DNA of 18,014 nucleotides from a virus (lineage: Duplodnaviria > Heunggongvirae > Uroviricota > Caudoviricetes), in the IMG/VR virus record IMGVR_UViG_2778261276_000009, positions 1-18,014 of that record. The stretch is one strand, 5' to 3'. Below, one piece after another: positions 7,724 through 18,014 of this stretch. A program made the translations under genes and the position numbers. The number at the start of each line of letters is the position of its first letter. Position 1 is the stretch's first letter. The notes under the pieces were generated by a model. The model was not told where the DNA came from and made no database searches. It saw only the letters and a list, made by a program, of their open reading frames with translations.

Positions 7724-7746
7724 AAGCACGGTGTTCGGGGTTTTTT

Positions 7747-8679
7747 ATGAGCAGTAAGCTTCATGGTCTTGTCTGGGAAGGGTGTGCCTTCACAGGCATG
7801 ATCTTATCCAGAGTGGCAGTAATGGCTCGCCTTGCAGACTACAGCAATGACGAAGGTGTGTCATGGCCTGCAGTGGAGACCATTCGTCGTCAGATTGGGG
7901 CAAAGAGTGAATCAACGGTTAAAGCTGCGATAGCTGAACTGGAAAAGAACGGCTGGCTGACGAAGGAGGAACGTAAGGTCGGTGGGCGTAATGAAAGCAA
8001 TATCTACCGTCTTAATGTGGAAAAACTCGAAGCAGCAGCAGCGGCGGCGCGTGAGGCATATAAACCGAAAAGAAAAATTAACCCGGCAAAAAATGACCCG
8101 CTAACCGTTGACCCGTCAAATTCTGATGGATCAACCGTTGATAAAAAACAGCCGGTTAGGGGGGCGATGGTTGGCCCCGATCCGTCAGTATTAAAACCTG
8201 ATCCGTCAGATAAAAGATCTTCTTGTCCGGAAACTTCGCAACCGGACGAGAAGACAGCTGAACAGGCGTTTTTAACCCGTCATCCTGATGCGGTTGTGTT
8301 CAGTGTGAAAAAACGCCAGTGGGGAACTCAGGAAGATTTGACGTGTGCGCAGTGGATCTGGTGGCGAATCGTGAGTCTTTACGAACAGGCTGCCAGCGAT
8401 GATGGCGAGATTACGCGACCGAAAGAACCCAACTGGACCGCATGGGCCAATGACGTGCGCACAATGCGGATGCTGGATGGCAGAACTCACAGGCAAATTT
8501 GCGAAATGTTCAGTCGGGTACAACGGGATCCATTCTGGGTAAAAAACGTCATGAGCCCGTCAAAGCTTCGCGAAAAATGGGATGAGCTGGTTATTCGTCT
8601 GGGACGTTCGCCTGTACAGCGTTGTGTGAATCACATTTCTGAACCGGACACCGAAATTCCGCCAGGGTTCAGGGGATAA
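7747..8679 (+). CDS. Putative replication initiation protein with N-terminal winged-helix domain
   Basis: 310-aa ORF; N-terminal region (LSRVAVMARLADYSNDEGVSWPAVETIRRQIGAKSESTVKAAIAELEKNGWL) typical of phage replication-initiator HTH domains; central low-complexity linker. Confidence 0.5.
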   Translation: MSSKLHGLVWEGCAFTGMILSRVAVMARLADYSNDEGVSWPAVETIRRQIGAKSESTVKAAIAELEKNGWLTKEERKVGGRNESNIYRLNVEKLEAAAAAAREAYKPKRKINPAKNDPLTVDPSNSDGSTVDKKQPVRGAMVGPDPSVLKPDPSDKRSSCPETSQPDEKTAEQAFLTRHPDAVVFSVKKRQWGTQEDLTCAQWIWWRIVSLYEQAASDDGEITRPKEPNWTAWANDVRTMRMLDGRTHRQICEMFSRVQRDPFWVKNVMSPSKLREKWDELVIRLGRSPVQRCVNHISEPDTEIPPGFRG

Positions 8680-8723
8680 GTTTGGTTTGAGATTGGTAAA
8701 TGATTTTAACGGGAGAAATTTTG

Positions 8724-9518
8724 ATGGAAACGTTGATTGATACGTTAAAAGCGATGCAAAAGGTGACGTGCACCGAGCTTGCTGCCAGTTTGGGCATTGA
8801 ACCTGCAGAGGCGATTAAAATGCTGAGGGAGTACGAAGAGCTGGGAGAAGTTGTGTCGGTTAATGGTTACTGGTCTGTTTCAGAACGACAAACGGGCGTG
8901 AAAGAAAAAAAAGTAACGGTGTGTAAAGTGGAAAGAAAATCCCATCCGGTGGTCAGCAGAAAAGAGCGTGAGCCACTGAATCGCTGCGACATCCTGTCCA
9001 CACTTGCTCATGGTGGGGCAATGACCACCGCTGAGATTGCAATTGCTGTGGGGCGTGCTGATTGCGTCAGGTCGCTGGTTTCTGCGATGGAAAAGCTTTG
9101 CCGCGATGGCATGGTGATTAAGCTGGGACAGGGGAAGGGGTGTAAGTGGATGCAGGTAAAAGAAACCGGGGAAAATTTACCAGCAGAGCCGAAAGTTGTA
9201 TCGGTAGAGAAAACACTTGGTAAAGCCTTTTCTCAGCCAGCCGGTGTTGCGTTACCAGTACAGGAAGCGGCAACACAGGAAGAAATTAAAACAGATACTG
9301 TGGGGGACATTGTGCAGTCGTTGCCATCGTTCACTGAAACGCGAGCCAATGGCCTGATTTTACCATCGCTGCATATGGCAAACCGCGAACTGCGCCGGGC
9401 GAAAAGTCATGTCCAGAAGTGGGAGCGAGTCTGCGCCGCGCTGCGGGAGCTGAACAAGCACCAGGATATTGTCCGACAGATTGTCGATTCCTCCAGTCGT
9501 ATTGTGTCGGAAAAGTGA
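8724..9518 (+). CDS. Hypothetical protein with two predicted winged-helix-like regions and a C-terminal helical tail; no Walker A motif
   Basis: GGGAG SD 8 nt upstream of ATG 8724 (ORF track gives 8700); sits where a helicase loader would be expected but has no GxxxxGK[ST]. Confidence 0.5.
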   Translation: METLIDTLKAMQKVTCTELAASLGIEPAEAIKMLREYEELGEVVSVNGYWSVSERQTGVKEKKVTVCKVERKSHPVVSRKEREPLNRCDILSTLAHGGAMTTAEIAIAVGRADCVRSLVSAMEKLCRDGMVIKLGQGKGCKWMQVKETGENLPAEPKVVSVEKTLGKAFSQPAGVALPVQEAATQEEIKTDTVGDIVQSLPSFTETRANGLILPSLHMANRELRRAKSHVQKWERVCAALRELNKHQDIVRQIVDSSSRIVSEK

Positions 9519-9534
9519 TTCCTGGGGAGGGCTT

Positions 9535-9954
9535 ATGGCAAAAGTATTTACACAGGAAGAGCGGGAAAAAATTAAAGGGCAGATCGTTGATCTCGTACGC
9601 CAGAGTGGGCGCGAGACGTTACGACAACTGGAAGCTAAAACGGGGGCGACAAGATATCAGATAAGTGTTCTTGCCAGGGAGTTGGTTGCGAATGGTGACG
9701 TATACAACTCTGGCTACGGGTTATTCCCGTCTGAGCAGGCACGTAAAGACTGGCAAAACGCCCGCAAAAAACTATCGAGGGCAAAGGTGAAGAAACCAGT
9801 TGTGGTTGATCCAGACCTTATTTGGTCATTACTAGACGGAGAAATACGTCGTTACGACAGGCGTCATAATATAATTTGTAGTGAGTGCCGTAAAAGCGAA
9901 GTTATGAAGCGCATATTGTCGTTTTATCAGGGAGATGTTCGGTATTTATTGTAG
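9535..9954 (+). CDS. Hypothetical 139-aa protein
   Basis: GGGGAGGG SD before ATG 9535 (internal to track ORF 9469-9954); HTH-like segment TLRQLEAKTGATRYQISVLARELV. Confidence 0.55.
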   Translation: MAKVFTQEEREKIKGQIVDLVRQSGRETLRQLEAKTGATRYQISVLARELVANGDVYNSGYGLFPSEQARKDWQNARKKLSRAKVKKPVVVDPDLIWSLLDGEIRRYDRRHNIICSECRKSEVMKRILSFYQGDVRYLL

Positions 9955-10156
9955 TGATGATATTTAAGAGCATTAATTAATATGTGAATTGACATTTTCA
10001 TGGCATAGGGTAGAGCTAGCGTGGTTGTCCGCTTTGTGCCATTACCGGACATACTGAGCAGAAGGTTTAAAAGAACGCTTTCAGGACATATAGCAAGAGA
10101 GCAGGGATGATAGAATAAACCCAGTATATTTAATGTTTCAATCATGATAGTTTCTG

Positions 10157-10184
10157 AATTAAAGGGGGGTATCCCCCTTTAATT
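10157..10184. terminator. Perfect 28-bp palindrome at the 3' end of the 92-aa gene, likely bidirectional terminator
   Basis: AATTAAAGGGGGG-T-ATCCCCCTTTAATT at 10157-10184, between convergent genes. Confidence 0.5.
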
Positions 10185-10461
10185 ACTTGTACCACTCAGT
10201 CTGAATTTGGTTACTAACTTCATCAGAGAGATTGTACCAATAAACTAAGTTATTGGTTGCGTCTACAACAATAAGTTTATCATCACTATCCATGACCGCC
10301 CTCACAATTTTGGCTGCATCCTCGGCAGAGTAACTACAGTTAACATACCAGTTCGATTCAGTTGTTAAAGCCCAATTTCCTAAAGATTTAATTGCATCAT
10401 ACACAGCCGCATAATCTTTCGTTTTAATGAGGTCATAAGTAATAAATAAATTATTAGCCAT
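10183..10461 (-). CDS. Hypothetical 92-aa protein of unknown family
   Basis: ATG 10461 with GGAG 8 nt upstream; alternating predicted strand and helix segments; not recognised. Confidence 0.6.
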   Translation of the reverse strand: MANNLFITYDLIKTKDYAAVYDAIKSLGNWALTTESNWYVNCSYSAEDAAKIVRAVMDSDDKLIVVDATNNLVYWYNLSDEVSNQIQTEWYK

Positions 10462-10483
10462 AAATCATCTCCAAAAGGACAAA

Positions 10484-10507
10484 GAAAAAAGCGCCTAGAA
10501 AGGCGCT
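10484..10507 (-). terminator. Intrinsic terminator after the DUF3606-like gene
   Basis: Stem GCGCCT-agaa-AGGCGC (10491-10506); the minus strand reads hairpin then UUUUUUCUUU. Confidence 0.6.
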
Positions 10508-10513
10508 CATATA

Positions 10514-10693
10514 TTAATGGTCTTTAAGCCATGCCTGTACTTTCTTAGCCGAATGACCTACAGCCTGTACGGCTTGAACAAGTTTGGCCTCGCTAACTCC
10601 AAACTTTTCAGCCCAATCACGTCTTTCGTAATCCTGTTTGATACTTATTAAATCATTGTCAGGGGTACCGATTTTGGTCTTATCATCAGCCAT
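10514..10693 (-). CDS. DUF3606-like small protein (about 59 aa)
   Basis: MADDKTKIGTPDNDLISIKQDYERRDWAEKFGVSEAKLVQAVQAVGHSAKKVQAWLKDH matches the DUF3606 pattern as I recall it; GAGGAA SD upstream of ATG 10693. Confidence 0.6.
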   Translation of the reverse strand: MADDKTKIGTPDNDLISIKQDYERRDWAEKFGVSEAKLVQAVQAVGHSAKKVQAWLKDH

Positions 10694-11184
10694 TTTACTG
10701 ATTCCTCGTGATACAGGCTTATACCTGCCCATTAGTTATATGACTCCCGTGCCGCTTCGTAAACGTTCAATAATTAAACAATTGACGCTGATCATAAAAC
10801 CAGTTAAGGGATTTGACTCTACCTTGGATATATGATGATGCCACCCCCTTTATATTGTTGTCGGTAATTCACAGGCATTGAACTCATGCTGGTGAGTGAA
10901 AGACCACATAAACGCCCAACATTTAAACTGCTCTCAGCAGCGTTCGCGGAGCAATATACAGGCTTCGTATTCAATCCTTCCCCTACGAGAAATCCTAGCC
11001 GCTACCTCGTTTTCAAGTGTCAGTAAGTTCTTTGTCAGACATCATACAGTCTTGAGCTGGGTGAGGTGCATGGGGGAAGCTGAAGCCTTAACTGTTGAGG
11101 TAAATCGAACCATAAGTGTGCAATTTTTCAAGCCCGGCGCTATTTTAGTCTTGAAAACAATTAGTACGCCCCCAAGGACAACTC

Positions 11185-11877
11185 ATGATCGAATTTATCG
11201 CAGAGCATATAAACACAATAAGCACACTTATCTCCGCTTGGGCAGCATTGCTAACAGCAGTTGCTACATTTTTCTTGTGGAGAGTAACAAGGCTATTAGC
11301 AGACGAGACAAAAAGGATGGTTGACGCATCAGTTCAACCTCACGTCGTTGTGACTCTTGAACCAAATTCTTGGGCTGCTTTTTATTTTGATATCAATATT
11401 GCTAATACCGGAAATGCCCCAGCCTATGATATTGAAATCGGATTTAATCCCCCACTGGTAAATGCTGAACATAGAAAAAATAAAGGTATACCATTTAGCA
11501 AGGTTAGCGTATTAAAAAACGGCCATTCGCTCAACAGCAGTCTTTGTAAGTATGAACAGATTAAAGATCAAGTTTATTCTGTTAGTATTAGTTGGTCTAA
11601 ACAGCCGGGCTCAACTGAAAGAGAGCGGAATGAGTATTCTTATGATATGGCTTCTTTCGAGGGGGTTAGCTACTTAGGTGCAAGGAGTCCAATGACACAG
11701 ATAGCCGAGCAGGTGAAAAAGATTAGAGAAGACTGGAGGCCGATTTCCCATGGAAGCAAAAAAATTAAAACAGACAACTATAATTCAAGTGACAGAGCCG
11801 AGGAACAACGATTACGTGAAGAGTGGTATCAGACCACTGCAAAGAAATGGGATAAAGAAAAGCAAAAAGATAACTAA
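11185..11877 (+). CDS. Hypothetical 230-aa protein with single N-terminal transmembrane anchor
   Basis: AAGGA SD 6 nt upstream; hydrophobic segment about residues 12-33 (ISTLISAWAALLTAVATFFLWRV); preceded by about 450 nt without convincing coding sequence. Confidence 0.7.
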   Translation: MIEFIAEHINTISTLISAWAALLTAVATFFLWRVTRLLADETKRMVDASVQPHVVVTLEPNSWAAFYFDINIANTGNAPAYDIEIGFNPPLVNAEHRKNKGIPFSKVSVLKNGHSLNSSLCKYEQIKDQVYSVSISWSKQPGSTERERNEYSYDMASFEGVSYLGARSPMTQIAEQVKKIREDWRPISHGSKKIKTDNYNSSDRAEEQRLREEWYQTTAKKWDKEKQKDN

Positions 11878-12206
11878 TACAATTGACCTGATCCCCATAA
11901 ATTAGCATACCACAATCTCAGGTCCGCTCTTCGCTCACAGCGGACCTTCAGCTCCGGTAACTTATCCACTTCGTGCAAATTTCTCTCATAAGGGACAACC
12001 ATACTCAAATCTCCCACATTTCAGGAGGTATGAGTATGAGCACGTCACCGTGGAACAAAGACCAGATGGTCCGTTTAAGCGGGATACTTACAATCTAACT
12101 TCTGTTGGGTCAAGCCCTGAAAGCCGCTTAACATGAACTGTCCAACTTTATGGGGGCAGTCCAGTTGTAGCGGCTTTTTAGTATATCGTTAGAGGGGGGG
12201 GTAATA

Positions 12207-12998
12207 CTATACTGGTAATTGCTTTGTGTCAGGCATTGGCTCGGAAAATCTTTCAAAATCGCTGTACGTGCTTTCATCAAAGAGCGAGATCGCTTCAATT
12301 TGTTCGATAGGAATGACGTGTCGAAAATGTTGTAAATTTAATGGTTCGGACTCAAATGTGATTTCTTTGGATAGATAGAGATCATAGTATCGGTGTTGTT
12401 CTATGTAGCGTAGTGAATCCTTATCTCTGTAACCACTAATGAATGGTATGATCTCAAGATGCGCACAGTTGTGGAATTCAACACGTGGTGCTGCCACATA
12501 CCCGATATATACTTTTCTGGATTTTAGTGTTACAAAAATCAGCATCTCTGTGTCAATGGCTTGGATCAATAGGTTTTCTAGTGAATCTTTTGATGCCATC
12601 TCCCTGTAAGCCTTTTGGCGCGCTTCTTCATTCTCCATTTCTTTTCGCGCATCCACCCCTTCAGAGTAAGCAATACAACAAGCGAAAATGATGGTGATGA
12701 CAGCAAAAAGTGGTAATTCCATCACTTTGGTTTCAAGTAACCAATTAAAAAAATGCCATTCTATAGGTTTGTCTCGGAAAATATTGATTATGTGTGGGAT
12801 AGAGTTCAGTAGCCAGAAAAGCATGTAGATCCCGAGCGTCAAAAGAAATCCTTGAGCAACAAAACGACACCCATGCATTGCAACGTAGAAATAGGATGAC
12901 CACCCATTTGTTCTTGCGTGATGAATTCTCGATTGATAGTGATTCTCGGTGTACCAAAAACCACACACGAGAATCACAGTTATAATCAATGGACCCAT
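12207..12998 (-). CDS. Hypothetical 263-aa membrane protein (three predicted TM helices plus about 150-aa soluble C-terminal domain)
   Basis: ATG 12998 overlaps the stop of the upstream 72-aa gene (TAATG); AGGAAG SD; hydrophobic segments near residues 3-15, 46-63 and 96-112; no recognised catalytic motif. Confidence 0.7.
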   Translation of the reverse strand: MGPLIITVILVCGFWYTENHYQSRIHHARTNGWSSYFYVAMHGCRFVAQGFLLTLGIYMLFWLLNSIPHIINIFRDKPIEWHFFNWLLETKVMELPLFAVITIIFACCIAYSEGVDARKEMENEEARQKAYREMASKDSLENLLIQAIDTEMLIFVTLKSRKVYIGYVAAPRVEFHNCAHLEIIPFISGYRDKDSLRYIEQHRYYDLYLSKEITFESEPLNLQHFRHVIPIEQIEAISLFDESTYSDFERFSEPMPDTKQLPV

Positions 12999-13216
12999 TA
13001 AGCAACTTCCTTGTCTGTACGGTTATGTAGTTTTCGCAATTGTTTCATTTTCTTGATGATGTCTGCTTGAACTTCTGGGTTTTCTATGTTCAGGGTGGCA
13101 TTACCGTTCGCATCAACTGTAAGACGATATTTTGTCGTTTGCTCAAGATGGGTGTCAACATGGGTTGCTACAGCACTTGTGTATCGACGAAGCACTTTTC
13201 CGATAAGTGTGGGCAT
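12998..13216 (-). CDS. Hypothetical 72-aa soluble protein, first gene of the two-gene operon
   Basis: GGAGAG SD 6 nt upstream of ATG 13216 (track ORF starts at 13222, where SD spacing would be 0); stop TAA 12998-13000 overlaps the downstream start. Confidence 0.6.
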   Translation of the reverse strand: MPTLIGKVLRRYTSAVATHVDTHLEQTTKYRLTVDANGNATLNIENPEVQADIIKKMKQLRKLHNRTDKEVA

Positions 13217-13231
13217 ATGCATCTCTCCATT

Positions 13232-13300
13232 GTTAGTGACTAACTTTTATTACATGTTATTTACTATATAGACAACGAAAAGAAAATAAAGTTGTAGTAT
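13232..13300 (-). promoter_or_regulatory. Promoter and palindromic operator of the two-gene operon
   Basis: Minus strand: TTGTCT, 17 nt, TAATAA, then perfect 13-bp palindrome GTTAGTGACTAAC (plus 13232-13244) directly upstream of the SD. Confidence 0.45.
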
Positions 13301-13394
13301 CGAATGAACTAGAGGGGAGGGTAAGTAAAATCGCTGCGGGTGCTTGAGGCTATCTGTCTCAGGCATGAACACCAAAAGGCAGATAAAGAAAAGC

Positions 13395-13465
13395 CCAGTT
13401 AACATTACGCGTCCTGCAAGACGCTTAACATTAATCTGAGGCTCAATCTATGAACGGCAAATCTA
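13395..13465 (-). ncRNA. Predicted Sok-like antisense RNA of the hok locus (position inferred, boundaries approximate)
   Basis: hok leader strongly resembles the R1 hok/mok leader, where Sok is transcribed antisense across the mok start region; no promoter hexamers confidently identified. Confidence 0.25.
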
Positions 13466-13506
13466 GGTTAGCCTCTTACGTGCCGAAAGGCAAGGAGAAG
13501 CAGGCT

Positions 13507-13662
13507 ATGAAGCAGCAAAAGGCGATGTTAATCGCCCTGATCGTCATCTGTTTAACCGTCATAGTGACGGCACTGGTAACGAGGAAAGACCTCTGCGAGG
13601 TACGAATCCGAACCGGCCAGACGGAGGTTGCTGTCTTCGTGGACTACGAATCTGAGAAGTAA
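13507..13662 (+). CDS. hok: Hok/Gef-family type I toxin (HokD/RelF-like)
   Basis: MKQQKAMLIALIVICLTVIVTALVTRKDLCEVRIRTGQTEVAVF is near-identical to HokD as recalled; upstream leader GGTGCTTGAGGC (13339-13350) and mok-like upstream ATG at 13450 resemble the R1 hok leader; 3' segment GCATCCTCAATGCACC (13709-13724) is complementary to the 5' end. Confidence 0.85.
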   Translation: MKQQKAMLIALIVICLTVIVTALVTRKDLCEVRIRTGQTEVAVFVDYESEK

Positions 13663-13719
13663 GAGTGACCAGGCGGGAGAGTAATCTCCCGCCACCTCTG
13701 ATGTGTCGGCATCCTCAAT

Positions 13720-13755
13720 GCACCCGCGCTTAACCCTCTTTGGCGTTTTTTTTTG
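13720..13755 (+). terminator. 3' end of hok mRNA (T-run 13746-13754)
   Basis: Long T-run after a GC-rich segment; a perfect 9-bp stem with GTAA loop at 13672-13693 lies just after the stop. Confidence 0.45.
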
Positions 13756-13890
13756 CTTTCAGATAATAAATTTACCAAAATGGTTTACAAAATCATTTTT
13801 TATGATAATTTATTAGTCATGAAGTCTTCATCACAGGTTGTGCTCCGAAAATAGGCAGCCTGTTACTTATAGCGAATCGAGGAATTAACT

Positions 13891-14250
13891 ATGGCACTCA
13901 CTGAATTCGGTAAGGCCGTTAGAAAAGCGAGGATAGATACCGACTGCACATTGCTTACGATGGCTCAAGAACTGGGAGTAACTTCAGCTTTTCTGAGCGG
14001 TTTAGAAACAGGCAGTAAGAAAATCCCCAAAAAATGGGTAAAAGAGATTCAGGCTTTTTTCCTGAAAAGAGGTTATGAGATTAATAATCTTCAGGAATTG
14101 GCTGATGTATCTAATCAGTTTGTTTCCCTTGATGGATTGTCGCAAAATCAGCAAATGTTGGTTGCTGGTTTTGCTAAATCCCCATTAACACCAGAGCAGT
14201 TAAAGCGAATAGCAGAGTTGATGAAAAGTATTAATCATGTTGAGGGATGA
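13891..14250 (+). CDS. XRE-family helix-turn-helix transcriptional regulator
   Basis: 119-aa ORF, GAGGAA SD; HTH segment LTMAQELGVTSAFLSGLETG; inverted repeats upstream (AAAATG...CATTTT 13778-13801; TGAAGTCTTCA 13824-13834). Confidence 0.8.
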   Translation: MALTEFGKAVRKARIDTDCTLLTMAQELGVTSAFLSGLETGSKKIPKKWVKEIQAFFLKRGYEINNLQELADVSNQFVSLDGLSQNQQMLVAGFAKSPLTPEQLKRIAELMKSINHVEG

Positions 14251-14253
14251 TCG

Positions 14254-14736
14254 TTGGAACAATCAGCTTACACATTACGTGGAAATCGTGTTGCACCAAT
14301 GAGTATTGTTGATATAACAACTCGCGCTGTTAACTATAGCGCGATCTTCGACCTTAAAACGTTGAAAAGAAAAAAGCGGTTAGACCATGCATTTGAGTTG
14401 TTGAGTGAATATGGGATAACGCTCAATATCGTTGAGGATCGTGCGTGGACTAAAGCTACATATGATTTGACATCTGGGCATTACGATCCAATTACACTTA
14501 CAATTAGTGTGCCGAATCATACATTTGAGTTGGCATGTAAAGGTGATAGAGAAGCATTATTTGTGCTCTTTCATGAAATCGGACATTTGGTGTTGGGGCA
14601 TAGAGCGTTATTTCACAGTTCCAATAAACCACCTTCGCAAATTGAAGATGCTGAATGGCAAGCAGATTTGTTTGCCGAGGTGGTTTTGCGCGAATTAGGA
14701 TTTTATATGGATCAACTATCATTTGACTTTTTATAA
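14254..14736 (+). CDS. ImmA/IrrE-family (COG2856-type) zinc metallopeptidase
   Basis: HEIGHLVLGH (HEXXH) at 14569-14601; start 4 nt after the XRE stop; TTG at 14254 has a GAGGGA SD, the alternative ATG at 14299 has none. Confidence 0.8.
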   Translation: MEQSAYTLRGNRVAPMSIVDITTRAVNYSAIFDLKTLKRKKRLDHAFELLSEYGITLNIVEDRAWTKATYDLTSGHYDPITLTISVPNHTFELACKGDREALFVLFHEIGHLVLGHRALFHSSNKPPSQIEDAEWQADLFAEVVLRELGFYMDQLSFDFL

Positions 14737-14738
14737 AA

Positions 14739-14760
14739 AAGCCCTGCTGTAACAGGGCTT
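14739..14760 (-). terminator. Hairpin whose U-run is on the minus strand
   Basis: AAGCCCTG-ctgtaa-CAGGGCTT; the plus strand has the A-run before it and no T-run after, so it terminates leftward transcripts most efficiently. Confidence 0.5.
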
Positions 14761-15064
14761 AGGATGGAAAGTCCGATAACTTTCCAGTGCAGATGGAGAA
14801 CCCCACCGCCACACTTGGATTTGACAGATGCAAGTTTAGCGGTTCTCCCAACAAATCGCAACCTGTATGGGGATACAGGTATGCAGGGACTTGCTTGTTA
14901 TGGCAATGAAAATCTGTAAGGAATGCGGAAAACCGTGCGAAATTATTTTTCGTTATTCCGTTTGTATCAATGGAGTTATGCGATATGCGAGGAAGGGGCA
15001 CCCTTTCCCGATTCCTGTTTGTGGTTGCTCCCGAACGTAGAGTTGCATAATGATCTAATCTAAA

Positions 15065-15084
15065 CCCGCTTCGGCGGGTTTTTT
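15065..15084 (+). terminator. Intrinsic terminator, plus-oriented
   Basis: CCCGC-ttcg-GCGGG followed by TTTTTT (15079-15084). Confidence 0.65.
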
Positions 15085-15159
15085 GTTTTACGTATTCTGG
15101 TTTACAATCCACAGGCCAGCCTGAACAACTGGCACCTGCTGCGCCAGCAGAGACAACCG

Positions 15160-15438
15160 ATGGCGCACGATACCAAATTACACAATTCTAATGATTCTGC
15201 TGTCTTTGCCAGCAGGTGCGGACGGCGTTTTCACGCATTCAAATCAGACTGGTTCCAGCATCCTCCATGCACTGAAGAGCAGGCTGAATGGATAATTCAG
15301 TGTTACCGCAGGCGTGGATACGAGGTTAAGAAAGCTCTTAGTCTCGACTATCGTCACTGGATAATCTCAGTCAGACTCCCTTACTCCGAACGCCCACCGC
15401 GTCCGTCCCGCACATTCCAGCAACGGATTTGGAGGTAA
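15160..15438 (+). CDS. Hypothetical 92-aa protein, first gene of the nin-like block
   Basis: ORF ends 2 nt before the DUF968 gene start; weak SD; a TACAAT -10-like hexamer at 15103-15108 precedes it. Confidence 0.45.
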   Translation: MAHDTKLHNSNDSAVFASRCGRRFHAFKSDWFQHPPCTEEQAEWIIQCYRRRGYEVKKALSLDYRHWIISVRLPYSERPPRPSRTFQQRIWR

Positions 15439-15439
15439 C

Positions 15440-16498
15440 GTGCGGGTATTACTTCGACCTGTTCTGGTACCGGAACTCGGGCTGGTGGTCCTTAAGCCAG
15501 GTCGTGAATCCATGCAGGTATTTCACAATCCTCGAGTGCTGGTGGAGCCGGAATCGAAAAGCATGTGCGGCCTGCCATCCGGAGTCGTCCCTGCCGTTCG
15601 CCAGCCGCTGGCGGAGGATAAATCATTACTGCCATTTTTCAGCGATGAGCGGGTGATTCGTGCTGCTGGCGGCGCTGGGGCACTGTCTGACTGGCTGTTG
15701 CGTCATGTCAAATCCTGCCAGTGGCCTCATGGTGACTATCATCACAGTGAAATCGTCATACATCGTTACGGTACCGGCGCGATGGTGTTGTGCTGGCACT
15801 GCGACAACCAGCTGCGTGACCAGACATCCGAATCACTCGAGCAACTTGCTCATCAAAATCTGTCAGCATGGATGATTGACGTCATACGCCATGCAATGAA
15901 TGGCACGCAGGAGAGGGAGTTATCGCTGGCTGAATTATCCTGGTGGGCGGTCTGCAATCAAGTGGCGGACGCGCTTCCGGAGGCAGTATTACGTCGTTCT
16001 CTGGGGTTACGTGCGGAAAAAATCCGCGCGGTGTACCGCGAAAGCGACATCGTACCGGGAGAGCAGACCGCCACCAACATACTGAAGCAGCGCACAAAAA
16101 ATCTTGCGCCGTTGCCTCACTCCCACCAGCAACAGAACCCACCACTGGAAAATACGGTGGTATGCATCACCGTTGATCCGGAGTCTCCGGAATCTTTCAT
16201 GAGGCGACCTAAACGTCGCCGTTGGGTAAATGAGAAATATACGCGCTGGGTGAAGACACAGCCGTGTGCGTGTTGTGGTCAACCAGCCGACGATCCCCAT
16301 CACCTGATTGGTCACGGTCAGGGAGGGATGGGAACAAAGGCTGATGATTTGTTTGTTATTCCGCTGTGCCGTAAATGTCATAACGAACTGCACGCCGGGG
16401 TAAAAGATTTTGAAGAAAAACACGGCAGCCAGCTGTTGTTGCTGATTCGTTTTTTAATGCACGCGAGAAATTCGGGTGTCCTGAAGTGGAAAGCATGA
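15440..16498 (+). CDS. DUF968-domain protein (YdfU-like)
   Basis: 352-aa ORF with GTG start after GGAGG; C-terminal Cys/His-rich motif CACCGQPADDPHHLIGHG...CRKCHNELH typical of DUF968 as recalled; directly upstream of rusA. Confidence 0.75.
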   Translation: MRVLLRPVLVPELGLVVLKPGRESMQVFHNPRVLVEPESKSMCGLPSGVVPAVRQPLAEDKSLLPFFSDERVIRAAGGAGALSDWLLRHVKSCQWPHGDYHHSEIVIHRYGTGAMVLCWHCDNQLRDQTSESLEQLAHQNLSAWMIDVIRHAMNGTQERELSLAELSWWAVCNQVADALPEAVLRRSLGLRAEKIRAVYRESDIVPGEQTATNILKQRTKNLAPLPHSHQQQNPPLENTVVCITVDPESPESFMRRPKRRRWVNEKYTRWVKTQPCACCGQPADDPHHLIGHGQGGMGTKADDLFVIPLCRKCHNELHAGVKDFEEKHGSQLLLLIRFLMHARNSGVLKWKA

Positions 16499-16876
16499 AT
16501 GACTGAACGCATAGAATTTGTTTTGCCTTACCCGCCGACGGTGAATACCTACTGGCGACGTCATGGCAATACGTATTTCATCTCGGAGGCCGGAAAGCGT
16601 TATCGCCGTGATGTGGCACTAATTGTTCGCCAGCAGCGACTGAAATTAAACCTGTCCGGAAGGCTGGCAATAAAAATTATTGCAGAGCCACCGGATAAGC
16701 GCCGCCGCGACCTGGACAATATCCTGAAGGCACCACTGGATGCGCTGACGCATGCCGGACTACTTATAGACGACGAGCAGTTTGATGAAATCAATATTGT
16801 GCGCGGACTGCCTGTTCCTGGTGGGCGGTTGGGCGTGAAGATTTACGAAATTACAGGTGATAACGATGGTGCGTGA
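16499..16876 (+). CDS. rusA: Holliday-junction resolvase RusA
   Basis: 125-aa product with RusA-like [10 protein letters not shown] and LDAL...DD motifs; ATG immediately follows the upstream TGA. Confidence 0.85.
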
Positions 16877-17252
16877 TATTCAGCAGGTTATGGAGCGGTG
16901 GGGAGCATGGGCTGCGAACAATCACGAAGATGTGTCATGGGCGTCAATCGCTGCTGGTTTTAAAGGATTAATCCCGCCGAAAGTGAAATCACGCCCTCAG
17001 TGTTCTGATGATGATGCAATGATAATTTGTGGCTGTATGGCCCGGTTGAACAAGAAAAATCAGGATTTGCACGATTTGTTGGTGGATTATTACGTAGGTG
17101 GAATGACTTTTATGGGGTTGGCACGAAAGCATGGGTGTTCGGATACCTGTATTGGCAAGCGCCTGCAGAAAGCGGAAGGGGTTATTGATGGCATGTTGAT
17201 GATGCTTGATATCCGACTGGAGATGGACAGATACGTAGAACGAATCATGTAG
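16866..17252 (+). CDS. Late-gene antiterminator Q-like protein
   Basis: About 128-aa ORF overlapping the rusA end (ATG 16866, AGGTGA SD); Cys-rich central region; immediately followed by a promoter and short terminated leader. Confidence 0.7.
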
Positions 17253-17256
17253 GAGC

Positions 17257-17286
17257 TTGACCAGACACATTGTCCGGGGCTATATT
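17257..17286 (+). promoter_or_regulatory. Candidate late promoter (lambda pR'-like)
   Basis: TTGACC (17257-17262), 18-nt spacer, TATATT (17281-17286), directly after the Q stop. Confidence 0.5.
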
Positions 17287-17346
17287 CCTCACGCGCCAGC
17301 AAAATCTGGCGTCGGGATTGGCGTCCCGGATGAAAAAGGCGACAAC

Positions 17347-17367
17347 AGACGCGCCAGCGTCTTTTTT
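17347..17367 (+). terminator. tR'-like terminator of the short late leader RNA
   Basis: AGACGC-gcca-GCGTCT followed by TTTTTT; two more hairpins (GCCAG...CTGGC, CGGGA...TCCCG) lie between promoter and terminator. Confidence 0.6.
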
Positions 17368-17525
17368 ATTGTCGTTTGCACTGTCGCATCTCAATGGTGG
17401 GCTGTGTGGGGGCGGAGCGATCCGCGCCGGTTCCTTTTTCCCGGTTACGCCAACCCTGCACAGTTCACCACCATACTGATTGGCGTCAGCAGTGGTGATG
17501 ATTCACATAGAAAAAGGATCATCCT

Positions 17526-18014
17526 ATGGCTATTCAAATCTCAGTTGAAACTCTTTCCCCGATCACCCATAACCAAATCCCTGTCATTACTACCGAGCTT
17601 TTGGCACAACTTTATGGCACCGAAACTAATAACATCAAAGTGAACTATACACGCAATGCCGAGCGTTTTGTTTGTGGGAAACACTACTTCAAATTGGAAG
17701 GGGCTGAGTTGCGGGAATTTAAGAACAAGGTTACTCAAAGTAACTTAGTTGCACCGCGTACAAAGCACCTCATCCTCTGGACAGAACGCGGAGCAGCCCG
17801 TCACGCCAAAATGCTGGAAACCGATCAGGCGTGGGAAGTGTTCGAAAAACTGGAAGACTGTTATTTCAGCCAAAAACAACCACCAGCAGCACAAAACACC
17901 CCAACCCAAAATGATGGATGCGCATTACTGATCCACTTCGATAAACACGGTCAGGTCGACTTCACGGAAAAACTACCCGCCGATGCGATGGTATGCACTC
18001 TGGAACGGTTTTAA
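17526..18014 (+). CDS. ORF6N/KilA-N-like domain protein, first gene after the late promoter
   Basis: 162-aa ORF with AAGGA SD; N-terminal region (VITTELLAQLYGTETNNIKVNYTRNAERFVCGKHYFKLEGAELREFK) resembles ORF6N-type domains found in antirepressor/Rha-like proteins; stop TAA is the last codon of the window. Confidence 0.6.
   Translation: MAIQISVETLSPITHNQIPVITTELLAQLYGTETNNIKVNYTRNAERFVCGKHYFKLEGAELREFKNKVTQSNLVAPRTKHLILWTERGAARHAKMLETDQAWEVFEKLEDCYFSQKQPPAAQNTPTQNDGCALLIHFDKHGQVDFTEKLPADAMVCTLERF

Follow-up and report, generated by a model that had tools for sequence, protein, structure and literature searches.

A predicted RNA-gated small gene with a structured leader and a putative antisense RNA behind the XRE-ImmA pair of Gammaproteobacteria prophages

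Several small genes of Escherichia coli that annotation has missed are controlled by antisense RNA. In the type I toxin-antitoxin (TA) systems tisB/istR-1, dinQ/agrB and zorO/orzO, a small open reading frame (ORF) with a structured leader is opposed by an antisense RNA, made constitutively, whose pairing site lies well upstream of the ribosome-binding site, and in systems of the tisB/istR-1 type a damage-responsive repressor induces the mRNA against a fixed pool of small RNA (sRNA). Here we describe a module of similar layout at positions 14737–15090 of an 18,014-nt stretch of viral DNA (the window; positions 1 to 18,014 of IMG/VR virus record IMGVR_UViG_2778261276_000009), shown from 14,737 to 15,159. 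The module consists of a leader RNA, a gene for a Cys-rich protein of 46 amino acids (aa) and a terminator, and follows genes for an XRE-family helix-turn-helix (HTH) protein and an ImmA/IrrE metallopeptidase. An antisense sRNA is predicted within the leader. We lean, by a modest degree, towards an RNA-gated small gene that would be controlled jointly by this sRNA and by a damage-responsive XRE-ImmA switch.

The module shares with tisB/istR-1 the small missed ORF, the long leader and a predicted antisense RNA that would pair upstream; XRE/ImmA would take the place of LexA. Unlike istR-1, the predicted sRNA is fully cis-antisense and ends at a shared bidirectional hairpin. Where the known toxins are hydrophobic membrane peptides, the module encodes a basic beta protein rich in Cys. 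It resembles istR neither in sequence nor by Rfam model (covariance match 16.9 bits, threshold 45). The antisense pairs sar/ant of phage P22, C4/ant of phages P1 and P7, CopA/CopT and RNA I/RNA II share with the module short hairpin RNAs with a terminator stem and apical loops whose specificity differs between related elements; in phages P1 and P7, duplicated target elements change together between heteroimmune phages. The module has no sequence or covariance-model similarity to sar (14.7 bits, threshold 43), and, unlike the ant systems, its regulated gene is not an antirepressor of a known family. Mu Com, P2 Ogr and E. coli YnfU, the last recently recognised in the Qin prophage, are also tiny, Cys-rich, probably Zn-binding and encoded by phages or prophages. 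They have no detectable sequence or fold similarity to the module protein, whose Cys pattern is CxxCxxxC...CxC as against the paired CPxC/CxxC knuckles of zinc-ribbon phage proteins. YnfU was ruled out as the same protein by its other locus and other motif.

The genes upstream have described relatives as well. CapH/CapP, ImmR/ImmA and DdrO/IrrE (PprI) have the same arrangement of an XRE HTH gene followed by an M78/COG2856 HExxH peptidase gene, in one operon with its own operator. In these systems the peptidase cleaves the repressor after DNA damage or in response to single-stranded DNA (ssDNA) and neighbouring genes are switched on; by analogy, the same may happen here. The output here would be a 46-aa protein encoded downstream on the same strand, with a leader and an antisense RNA, and not a divergent immune operon or a mobile-element excision programme. 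CapP/CapH and PprI/DdrO are peptidase/repressor pairs of this family activated by ssDNA or DNA damage (PMC10904395). Makarova, Wolf and Koonin (2009, PMC2701414) noted that Xre-COG2856 pairs are abundant in prophages and predicted that each controls a third component, then unidentified. The third components named in that analysis of three-component modules are RelE or PIN toxins, and the small protein and RNA described here are not in it.

The features of the module, with its helices numbered P1 to P4, are as follows.

14735–14760, both strands: P1, GC hairpin, GCCCTG (14741–14746) with CAGGGC (14753–14758) around the loop CTGTAA, flanked by A6 on the left (14735–14740) and TT on the right
14765–14786, both strands: P2, hairpin of TGGAAAGT and ACTTTCCA around the loop CCGATA, which could form in the plus-strand leader and in the minus-strand sRNA
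14795–14848, plus strand: P3, three-part helix (GGAG../..CUCC, CCGC/GCGG and ACUUG/CAAGU) with TTGACA in its apical loop
14858–14884, plus strand: P4, hairpin that holds a palindrome at 14861–14880, with the conserved loop (U)AUGGG(U/G)
14884–14889, plus strand: Shine-Dalgarno (SD) region, CAGGGA, 10 nt ahead of the start codon
14900–15040, plus strand: gene for the Cys-rich small protein, 46 aa, stop codon 15038–15040, product MAMKICKECGKPCEIIFRYSVCINGVMRYARKGHPFPIPVCGCSRT
15062–15087, plus strand: intrinsic terminator closing the module, found by terminator scan, stem 15062–15081 (AAACCCGC-TTCG-GCGGGTTT) followed by Ts
14833–14861, minus strand: predicted sigma-70 promoter of the antisense sRNA, −35 TTGCGA (14861 to 14856), 17-bp spacer, −10 TAAACT (14838 to 14833)
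14735–14825, minus strand: predicted cis-antisense sRNA of about 91 nt (91–101), comprising the P3 5′-arm complement, hairpin P2′ and, with its U6, terminator P1′

Relatives were collected by back-translated searches of IMG/VR and GTDB genomes, which gave 59 loci, and by an exhaustive HMMER and profile search for more distant relatives of the small protein. Loci from Proteus, Vibrio, Alteromonas, Pasteurellaceae and metagenomes came in through look-ups of genomic context and a second scan of IMG/VR. Single loci are cited by internal labels (L005, L014, L076 etc.).

By its pattern of substitution, the 46-codon ORF is a real gene under purifying selection. Among 39 distinct coding sequences, codon positions 1, 2 and 3 are variable at 18, 12 and 42 of 44 sites, and comparison of synonymous (pS) with non-synonymous (pN) sites gave a mean pS of 0.60, a mean pN of 0.096 and a pN/pS of 0.16, which bears out the small gene proposed in a first-pass annotation made from the letters of the window alone. 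A first, four-way alignment had the same character, with mostly third-position substitutions in the ORF and compensatory changes in the stems, and the ORF is uninterrupted in more than 80 loci. Either 14900 or 14906 had been offered as its start; the former is retained, because the second Met is replaced by Thr in several relatives. The SD region reads GCAGGGA in enteric relatives and GGAGA, 7–9 nt ahead of the ATG, in distant ones. The plus-strand terminator noted earlier on the right was recovered as a stem at 15062–15081 with its T-run, and nearly all relatives have a GC hairpin and T-run 3′ of the ORF.

Homologues of the small protein occur in Enterobacterales, Proteus, Vibrio, Alteromonas and Pasteurellaceae, with identity as low as ~35–40% in Yersinia, Proteus, Vibrio, Alteromonas and Ursidibacter. 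The Cys motifs read in the ORF at first pass, CxxCxxxC and CxC, are confirmed: among 26 diverse members C6, C9, C13, F17, G25, F36, I38 and C43 never vary, and P39 and C41 hardly do. The protein is basic and soluble-looking, without a hydrophobic helix. An alignment-based AlphaFold (AF2) model is all-beta with five strands (pLDDT 79.7). No significant match to the protein was found in Pfam, NCBIfam, PHROGs, PADLOC, PDB sequences or PDB folds, and peptide and DNA strings of the module had no match in full-text literature. A word-index protein search with the 46-aa sequence returned zero matches, because such ORFs are rarely called as genes. The Cys-rich protein is probably Zn-binding. Small ORFs that share the beta core but have no Cys occupy the same position after XRE-ImmA homologues in the IMG/VR loci L195, L209, L214, L217 and L218, for example VVVIFTPYITKNGKRIYHPQGGVFRIEIP and VIYRMTITVKGKVIRRPNGQPFRIVL; one such ORF compared by hhalign is homologous across a 30-residue core (probability 94.6%). 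Since Cys-less homologues exist, the wider family is defined by its beta core and not by zinc binding. Vibrio parahaemolyticus (L065–L067, 3790–4144) has two tandem paralogous mini-ORFs after XRE-ImmA, MKSGYCPKCKQPCEVSF... and MAASTTCPKCGNPCELIF..., behind a leader unlike the enteric one save for a P1-like hairpin.

Comparative evidence identifies the ~160 nt upstream of the ORF as a plus-strand RNA leader with four covariation-supported helices. Alignment A8 holds 54 unique leaders, and the structure tested on it comprised P1, P2, the three parts of P3, and P4. Across the structure 91.1% of cells pair, compared with at most 46% when the 3′ partners were slid by 1–3 columns. Both sides have changed in 23 pairs, a result matched by 0 of 500 shuffles, and covariation scored 0.192, whereas no slid control exceeded 0.063. 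By helix, 99% of cells pair in P1 and 94% in P4, and both-side changes are found in 7 of the 8 pairs of P2. The long imperfect stem reported at first pass, GGAGAACCCCACCGC ... GCGGTTCTCC (14795–14848), is present in the window and belongs to its minimum-free-energy fold (−61.4 kcal/mol, z = −3.65, 0 of 200 shuffles equally stable). G-U pairing is valid only on the strand that carries it and so reveals which strand folds. Counts of plus-strand G-U pairs and of A-C combinations, which the minus strand would read as G-U, were as follows.

P1: G-U 0, A-C 4, otherwise Watson-Crick only
P2: G-U 20, A-C 15, strand ambiguous
P3a: G-U 37, A-C 0
P3b: G-U 28, A-C 3
P3c (inner, weakly defined): G-U 25, A-C 36
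P4: G-U 40, A-C 6

P3a, P3b and P4 are assigned to the plus strand, because G-U far outnumber A-C. P1 and P2 appear workable on either strand, as expected if they also fold in a minus-strand RNA. The RNAalifold consensus is −29.9 kcal/mol on the plus strand and −21.2 kcal/mol on the minus strand. An Rfam scan of the region gave nothing at gathering thresholds; the best matches in E-value mode were terminator-driven (for example rsmX, 26 bits, threshold 56). Covariation without an Rfam match agrees with the earlier suggestion of an uncharacterised RNA element. A leader peptide from the AUG of AUGGAG was considered and rejected on inspection: its ATG is lost in L057, L080 and L090 and its frame shifts through indels.

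P1 is the exact left border of the conserved module, whatever gene precedes it. The terminator scan recovered it on the minus strand (14760 to 14739), as had been proposed for the left hairpin; on that strand it is a good terminator, and on the plus strand a leaky hairpin. On the minus strand the T-run that follows it has a mean length of 4.5 and is never shorter than 3 in the 54 leaders; on the plus strand the mean is 2.7. About 90 nt upstream of it on the minus strand lies a predicted transcription start, and the minus-strand promoter pattern TTGNNN-17-TANNNT is present in all 54 leaders. TTG, T1, A2 and T6 are invariant and the spacer is exactly 17 bp, with all four bases accepted at −10 position 3 (C 23, A 15, T 10, G 6). 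Within 230 nt of the start codon, neither strand has another conserved promoter-like site. The nearly invariant G14825, at the predicted +1, is the likely 5′ end of the sRNA, whose predicted fold has two hairpins and a terminator tail (−35.6 kcal/mol, z = −3.71). One cis-antisense sRNA is likely, because the conserved minus-strand promoter pairs with the P1 minus-strand terminator. The convergent sRNA pair envisaged at first pass is thereby reduced to one antisense sRNA, its plus-strand partner being mRNA leader and coding sequence. The TTGACA hexamer listed at 14821–14826 is present; as a plus-strand −35 it was discarded, as it has no conserved −10 partner and lies in the P3 apical loop at the antisense predicted +1. 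An unrestricted RNAduplex search for a second sRNA target in the xre-immA mRNA returned meaningless long duplexes and no conserved site.

The apical loops of P1 and P2 vary fast between lineages and are mostly twins. The whole P1 loop is repeated in the P2 loop, ~30 nt away, in 46 of 53 leaders, as ten exactly repeated types: CGCTAA, TTGACG, TTGGCA, TTTGCCG, CTAGGA, CTAGGAA, CTGAGAA, CTTCGAA, CTGCAAA and CTCTAA. The same change distinguishes both loops of L014 from those of its close relative L034. The window itself is an exception, with CTGTAA in P1 and CCGATAA in P2. The reverse complement of the twin loops was not found within 3 kb, nor a copy upstream of XRE. Neither XRE, ImmA nor the small protein covaries with loop type, and L005 and L032 encode identical small proteins although their loops are CTAGGA and CGCTAA respectively. 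The pattern recalls the specificity loops of antisense-RNA immunity and copy-control systems, an analogy that does not explain why the two loops are equal; we know of no described case of two identical loops within a single cis-antisense pair. A tentative and rather improbable extension is that the twin loops act as a programmable RNA "immunity type" that cross-silences co-resident or incoming cassettes, with leader, sRNA and micro-protein as the effector arm of a three-part mobile system of XRE repressor, ImmA peptidase and RNA-gated micro-protein. DNA damage or phage attack would then set the micro-protein free to act as a toxin or in host takeover. As a separate observation, the 7-nt twin loops (L014/L034, L037, L049, L052 and L059) are all of the form CU-NNN-AA (CUAGGAA, CUUCGAA, CUGCAAA, CUGAGAA). 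This is an anticodon-loop or U-turn signature, for which fast RNA-RNA kissing and mimicry are candidate readings.

The genes and control region upstream of the module are listed below.

13771–13812, plus strand: probable XRE promoter/operator block, TTTACC-AAAAT-GGTTTACA, overlapping a −35 TTTACA (13784–13789), with a −10-like TAATTT at 13807–13812
13891–14250, plus strand: XRE-family HTH protein, 119 aa (Pfam HTH_3 below curated cutoff; RefSeq annotated)
14254–14736, plus strand: ImmA/IrrE metallopeptidase (Peptidase_M78, COG2856), 160 aa, with the motif HEIGH (PF06114 just below curated cutoff; RefSeq annotated)

An XRE gene and a HExxH M78 peptidase gene in one operon are, by family and gene order, an Xre/ImmA regulatory pair. 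In every relative inspected the TTTACC-AAAAT block precedes the XRE start codon by ~100 nt; it is probably an autoregulated cassette promoter/operator, and the N-terminal HTH of XRE is nearly invariant across relatives. The module travels with this pair. In 63 of 84 loci the upstream gene is a HExxH ImmA homologue that ends at P1, and among 74 IMG/VR loci that encode an XRE homologue, a Cys-type ORF follows in 65 and a Cys-less one in at least 6 of the 9 others. An IMG/VR scan with the RNA motif gave 44 matches, of which 39 are true elements and 5 are chance matches inside an unrelated coding sequence, and the ORF follows all 39 true elements (two are cut by the locus end). The order XRE, ImmA, ~175-nt leader and mini-ORF recurs in a Proteus prophage beside the integrase and at the end of an HP1-like prophage. 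The same arrangement is also found in an Alteromonas integrative element and, with the ORF duplicated, in Vibrio. On balance, and with only moderate assurance, the ~350-bp module of leader, gene and terminator is regarded as the third part of a mobile XRE/ImmA cassette of Gammaproteobacteria prophages and other mobile elements.

In the mechanism proposed, the small gene, having no promoter of its own, would depend on transcripts that start at the autoregulated XRE promoter and read through the leaky P1. The ~91-nt sRNA (14825 to 14735), complementary by its predicted cis-antisense arrangement, would pair with P1, P2 and the P3 5′ arm of the leader and set an expression threshold for the small protein, through duplex cleavage or leader refolding. 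On DNA damage or in the presence of ssDNA, ImmA would inactivate XRE, like related peptidases. Operon transcription would then outrun the sRNA and the small basic protein would be made; candidate roles for it are toxin, antirepressor or host-takeover factor.

Three other readings of the region were weighed against the comparative data. The first-pass annotation had seen a possible LexA box in a perfect 8-4-8 palindrome, ACCTGTAT-GGGG-ATACAGGT (14861–14880, with CTGT-N8-ACAG at 14863–14878), which would place the small gene or an sRNA in the SOS regulon. The palindrome is there, CTGT-N8-ACAG is retained in 45 of the 54 A8 leaders by our own reading (39 of 41 in the first alignment), and tisB, dinQ and symE are SOS-induced small genes with antisense partners. 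Its evolution, however, is that of RNA helix P4 and not of a LexA operator. Positions flanking the CTGT/ACAG core covary, and in distant relatives G-U or compensatory pairs take the place of the half-site bases. Pairing is retained with CTGT/ACAG gone in Alteromonas, L076, L101, L087, L094, L037 and L063, the first five of which also keep the P4 loop; the counterpart of the palindrome is AAAUUUUUAUGGGUUUAAGGUUU in Alteromonas and GCAAAUAUUUGUGGGUUCAGUGUUUGC in L076. With a LexA position weight matrix of 29 E. coli sites (consensus TACTGTATATATATACAGTA), the palindrome scores 9.9 bits, below all 29 of these reference sites (minimum 12.7), and takes only fifth place among the sites of the window. 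A single CTGT-N8-ACAG is present there, with 0.21 expected by chance, and 38 of 200 shuffles (19%) hold at least one, so it is not significant alone. No conserved plus-strand promoter was found from −230 to +230 of the ATG, and so none at the palindrome, which lies upstream of the −35 of the minus-strand promoter. LexA control through this site is thus very improbable, although "SOS-regulated" may be right in spirit, since the gene stands behind an XRE/ImmA pair, a kind of switch that is damage-responsive elsewhere. The case is a caution for SOS-box scans, as a perfect CTGT-N8-ACAG palindrome can be an RNA helix and not an operator. The window's top LexA-like match by the same matrix is CGCTGATCATAAAACCAGTT (10786–10805, 14.0 bits), intergenic and upstream of ORFs starting at 10886–10896. 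The identical, lineage-specific loops would be explained if P1 and P2 were nut-like (boxB-type) hairpins for a phage-specific RNA-binding antiterminator, and the P1 stem GCCCUG/CAGGGC resembles the lambda boxB stem (GCCCU/AGGGC). Yet the hairpins occur in non-lambdoid contexts (the HP1-like prophage, the Alteromonas integrative element and the Proteus integrase-proximal site), no cassette protein covaries with a loop type while the XRE HTH is invariant and one small protein serves two types, and the loops have 6–7 nt and are not GNRA-like pentaloops. We give this reading even less weight than a LexA site. The region had also been described as free of a convincing long ORF. A minus-strand ORF of 117 codons (14759–15112) is in fact open in the window and crosses the whole region, but it lacks conservation: in the 54 relatives the longest stop-free stretch of the minus strand has a median of 70 codons, substitutions follow the plus-strand frame, and the ORF would contain the plus-strand terminator. 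That the region encodes this 117-aa product is refuted by the comparative data and has next to no probability.

The RNA-gated reading itself has two closer competitors and several points that weigh against it. In one, which we consider unlikely, there is no antisense RNA. P1 would be a bidirectional terminator of immA, the promoter pattern a by-product of constraint on the plus-strand RNA, and the leader purely cis-acting, bound for instance by the small protein or by a host factor, or a sensor of ligand or temperature. P3 and P4 plainly belong to the plus strand, all six invariant positions of the promoter lie in or beside them, and structural constraint may contribute to the conservation of those bases; the window promoter agrees with the consensus at only 8 of 12 positions, and the consensus scan did not pick it up. 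Nothing in an RNA helix calls for fixed TTG, T1, A2 and T6 beside a free position 3 with a 17-bp spacer in all 54 leaders, however, nor does this reading account for a P1 U-run that is longer on the minus strand in all lineages or for pair types that fit both strands in P1 and P2, unlike P3 and P4. For leader refolding, the predictions are mixed. The P3 3′ arm pairs with the ribosome-binding region at −9.6 kcal/mol against −6.4 kcal/mol for shuffled arms, but the masking effect is small: masking of the sRNA target lowers the predicted accessibility of the SD from 0.436 to 0.395, with a lower value in only 32 of 54 leaders. ImmA is a single-domain protein of 160 aa that covers only ~40 of 242 capP-model positions, around the metal-binding motif, and the PADLOC capH and capP matches are weak (E = 2e-3 and 4e-4). 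Because this peptidase is short and single-domain, unlike CapP, and its match to capP is weak and partial, ssDNA sensing is not simply transferable to it. The XRE-ImmA link is strong but not obligatory, as in 21 of 84 loci the gene next upstream is something other than an ImmA homologue, in some cases one for an unrelated protein of 304 or 146 aa. Finally, the sRNA, the small protein and the phenotype are all predictions from sequence.

The other competitor is a type I TA system in which the 46-aa product would inhibit growth as a toxin, with the antisense sRNA as antitoxin, in an addiction or abortive-infection module of the prophage. The small unannotated ORF, the long structured leader and the constitutive-looking cis-antisense RNA that avoids the ribosome-binding site are as in tisB/istR-1. 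Accessory "moron" positions, beside hok/sok here and beside integrases elsewhere, the tandem ORF duplicates in Vibrio, and fast-varying apical loops like antisense specificity loops also suit such a system. The protein, however, is basic, soluble-looking and beta-rich, without the hydrophobic helix of most type I toxins, and the early region of a Mu-like phage holds a homologous ORF that lacks both leader and antisense unit, which also counts against the RNA-gated reading. A type I TA system is possible, though we would not expect it. The RNA-gated small gene behind an XRE-ImmA switch is kept as the preferred reading.

The window is a lambdoid (Qin/Rac-like) prophage adjoining potC, with a 100% match in E. 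coli BCE049. The local order is hok/sok, the XRE gene, the ImmA/IrrE M78 gene, the module, a 92-aa ORF, DUF968, RusA and Q. RefSeq annotates nothing at 14737–15090 in the BCE049 genome, and in some relatives the module holds only an unrelated short hypothetical call on either strand. The full 14737–15159 stretch is present in only 56 of 5,426 complete E. coli genomes, and Klebsiella phage ST13-OXA48phi12.4 is the only carrier among 50,697 phage records. The last ~100 bp (15060–15159, the terminator and ~80 nt ahead of the 92-aa ORF) are present in ~2,900 of the 5,426 genomes; they are a conserved junction of lambdoid prophages, far commoner than the module itself. Two small hairpins, GCCAG..CTGGC and CTGCTG-CGC-CAGCAG, lie just ahead of the ATG of the 92-aa ORF (15160–15438), which occupies the position of rem in Qin. 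The hok/sok type I TA locus (13338–13662; Rfam sok 96 bits; RefSeq Hok/Gef coding sequence) lies directly upstream of the XRE-ImmA cassette, and because it adjoins the cassette the site is taken as an accessory-gene hotspot. After the Q antiterminator gene come a c4-a1b1 target (17280–17332), isrK (17293–17367) and a C4 antisense RNA (17390–17475), all of which exceed Rfam gathering thresholds.

The module combines known kinds, antisense-gated small genes and three-component Xre-COG2856 modules, with a function that is predicted. It brings together three unannotated elements: a small-protein family without a Pfam, NCBIfam or PHROG entry, a covariation-supported leader fold that Rfam lacks, and a putative antisense sRNA. 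The way in which the two identical loops evolve in concert may point to a specificity mechanism of a new kind. For one widespread XRE/ImmA subfamily, found in prophages of E. coli, Klebsiella, Proteus, Vibrio and Alteromonas, the module is a candidate output, and thus a candidate answer to a third-component question that dates from 2009 (PMC2701414).

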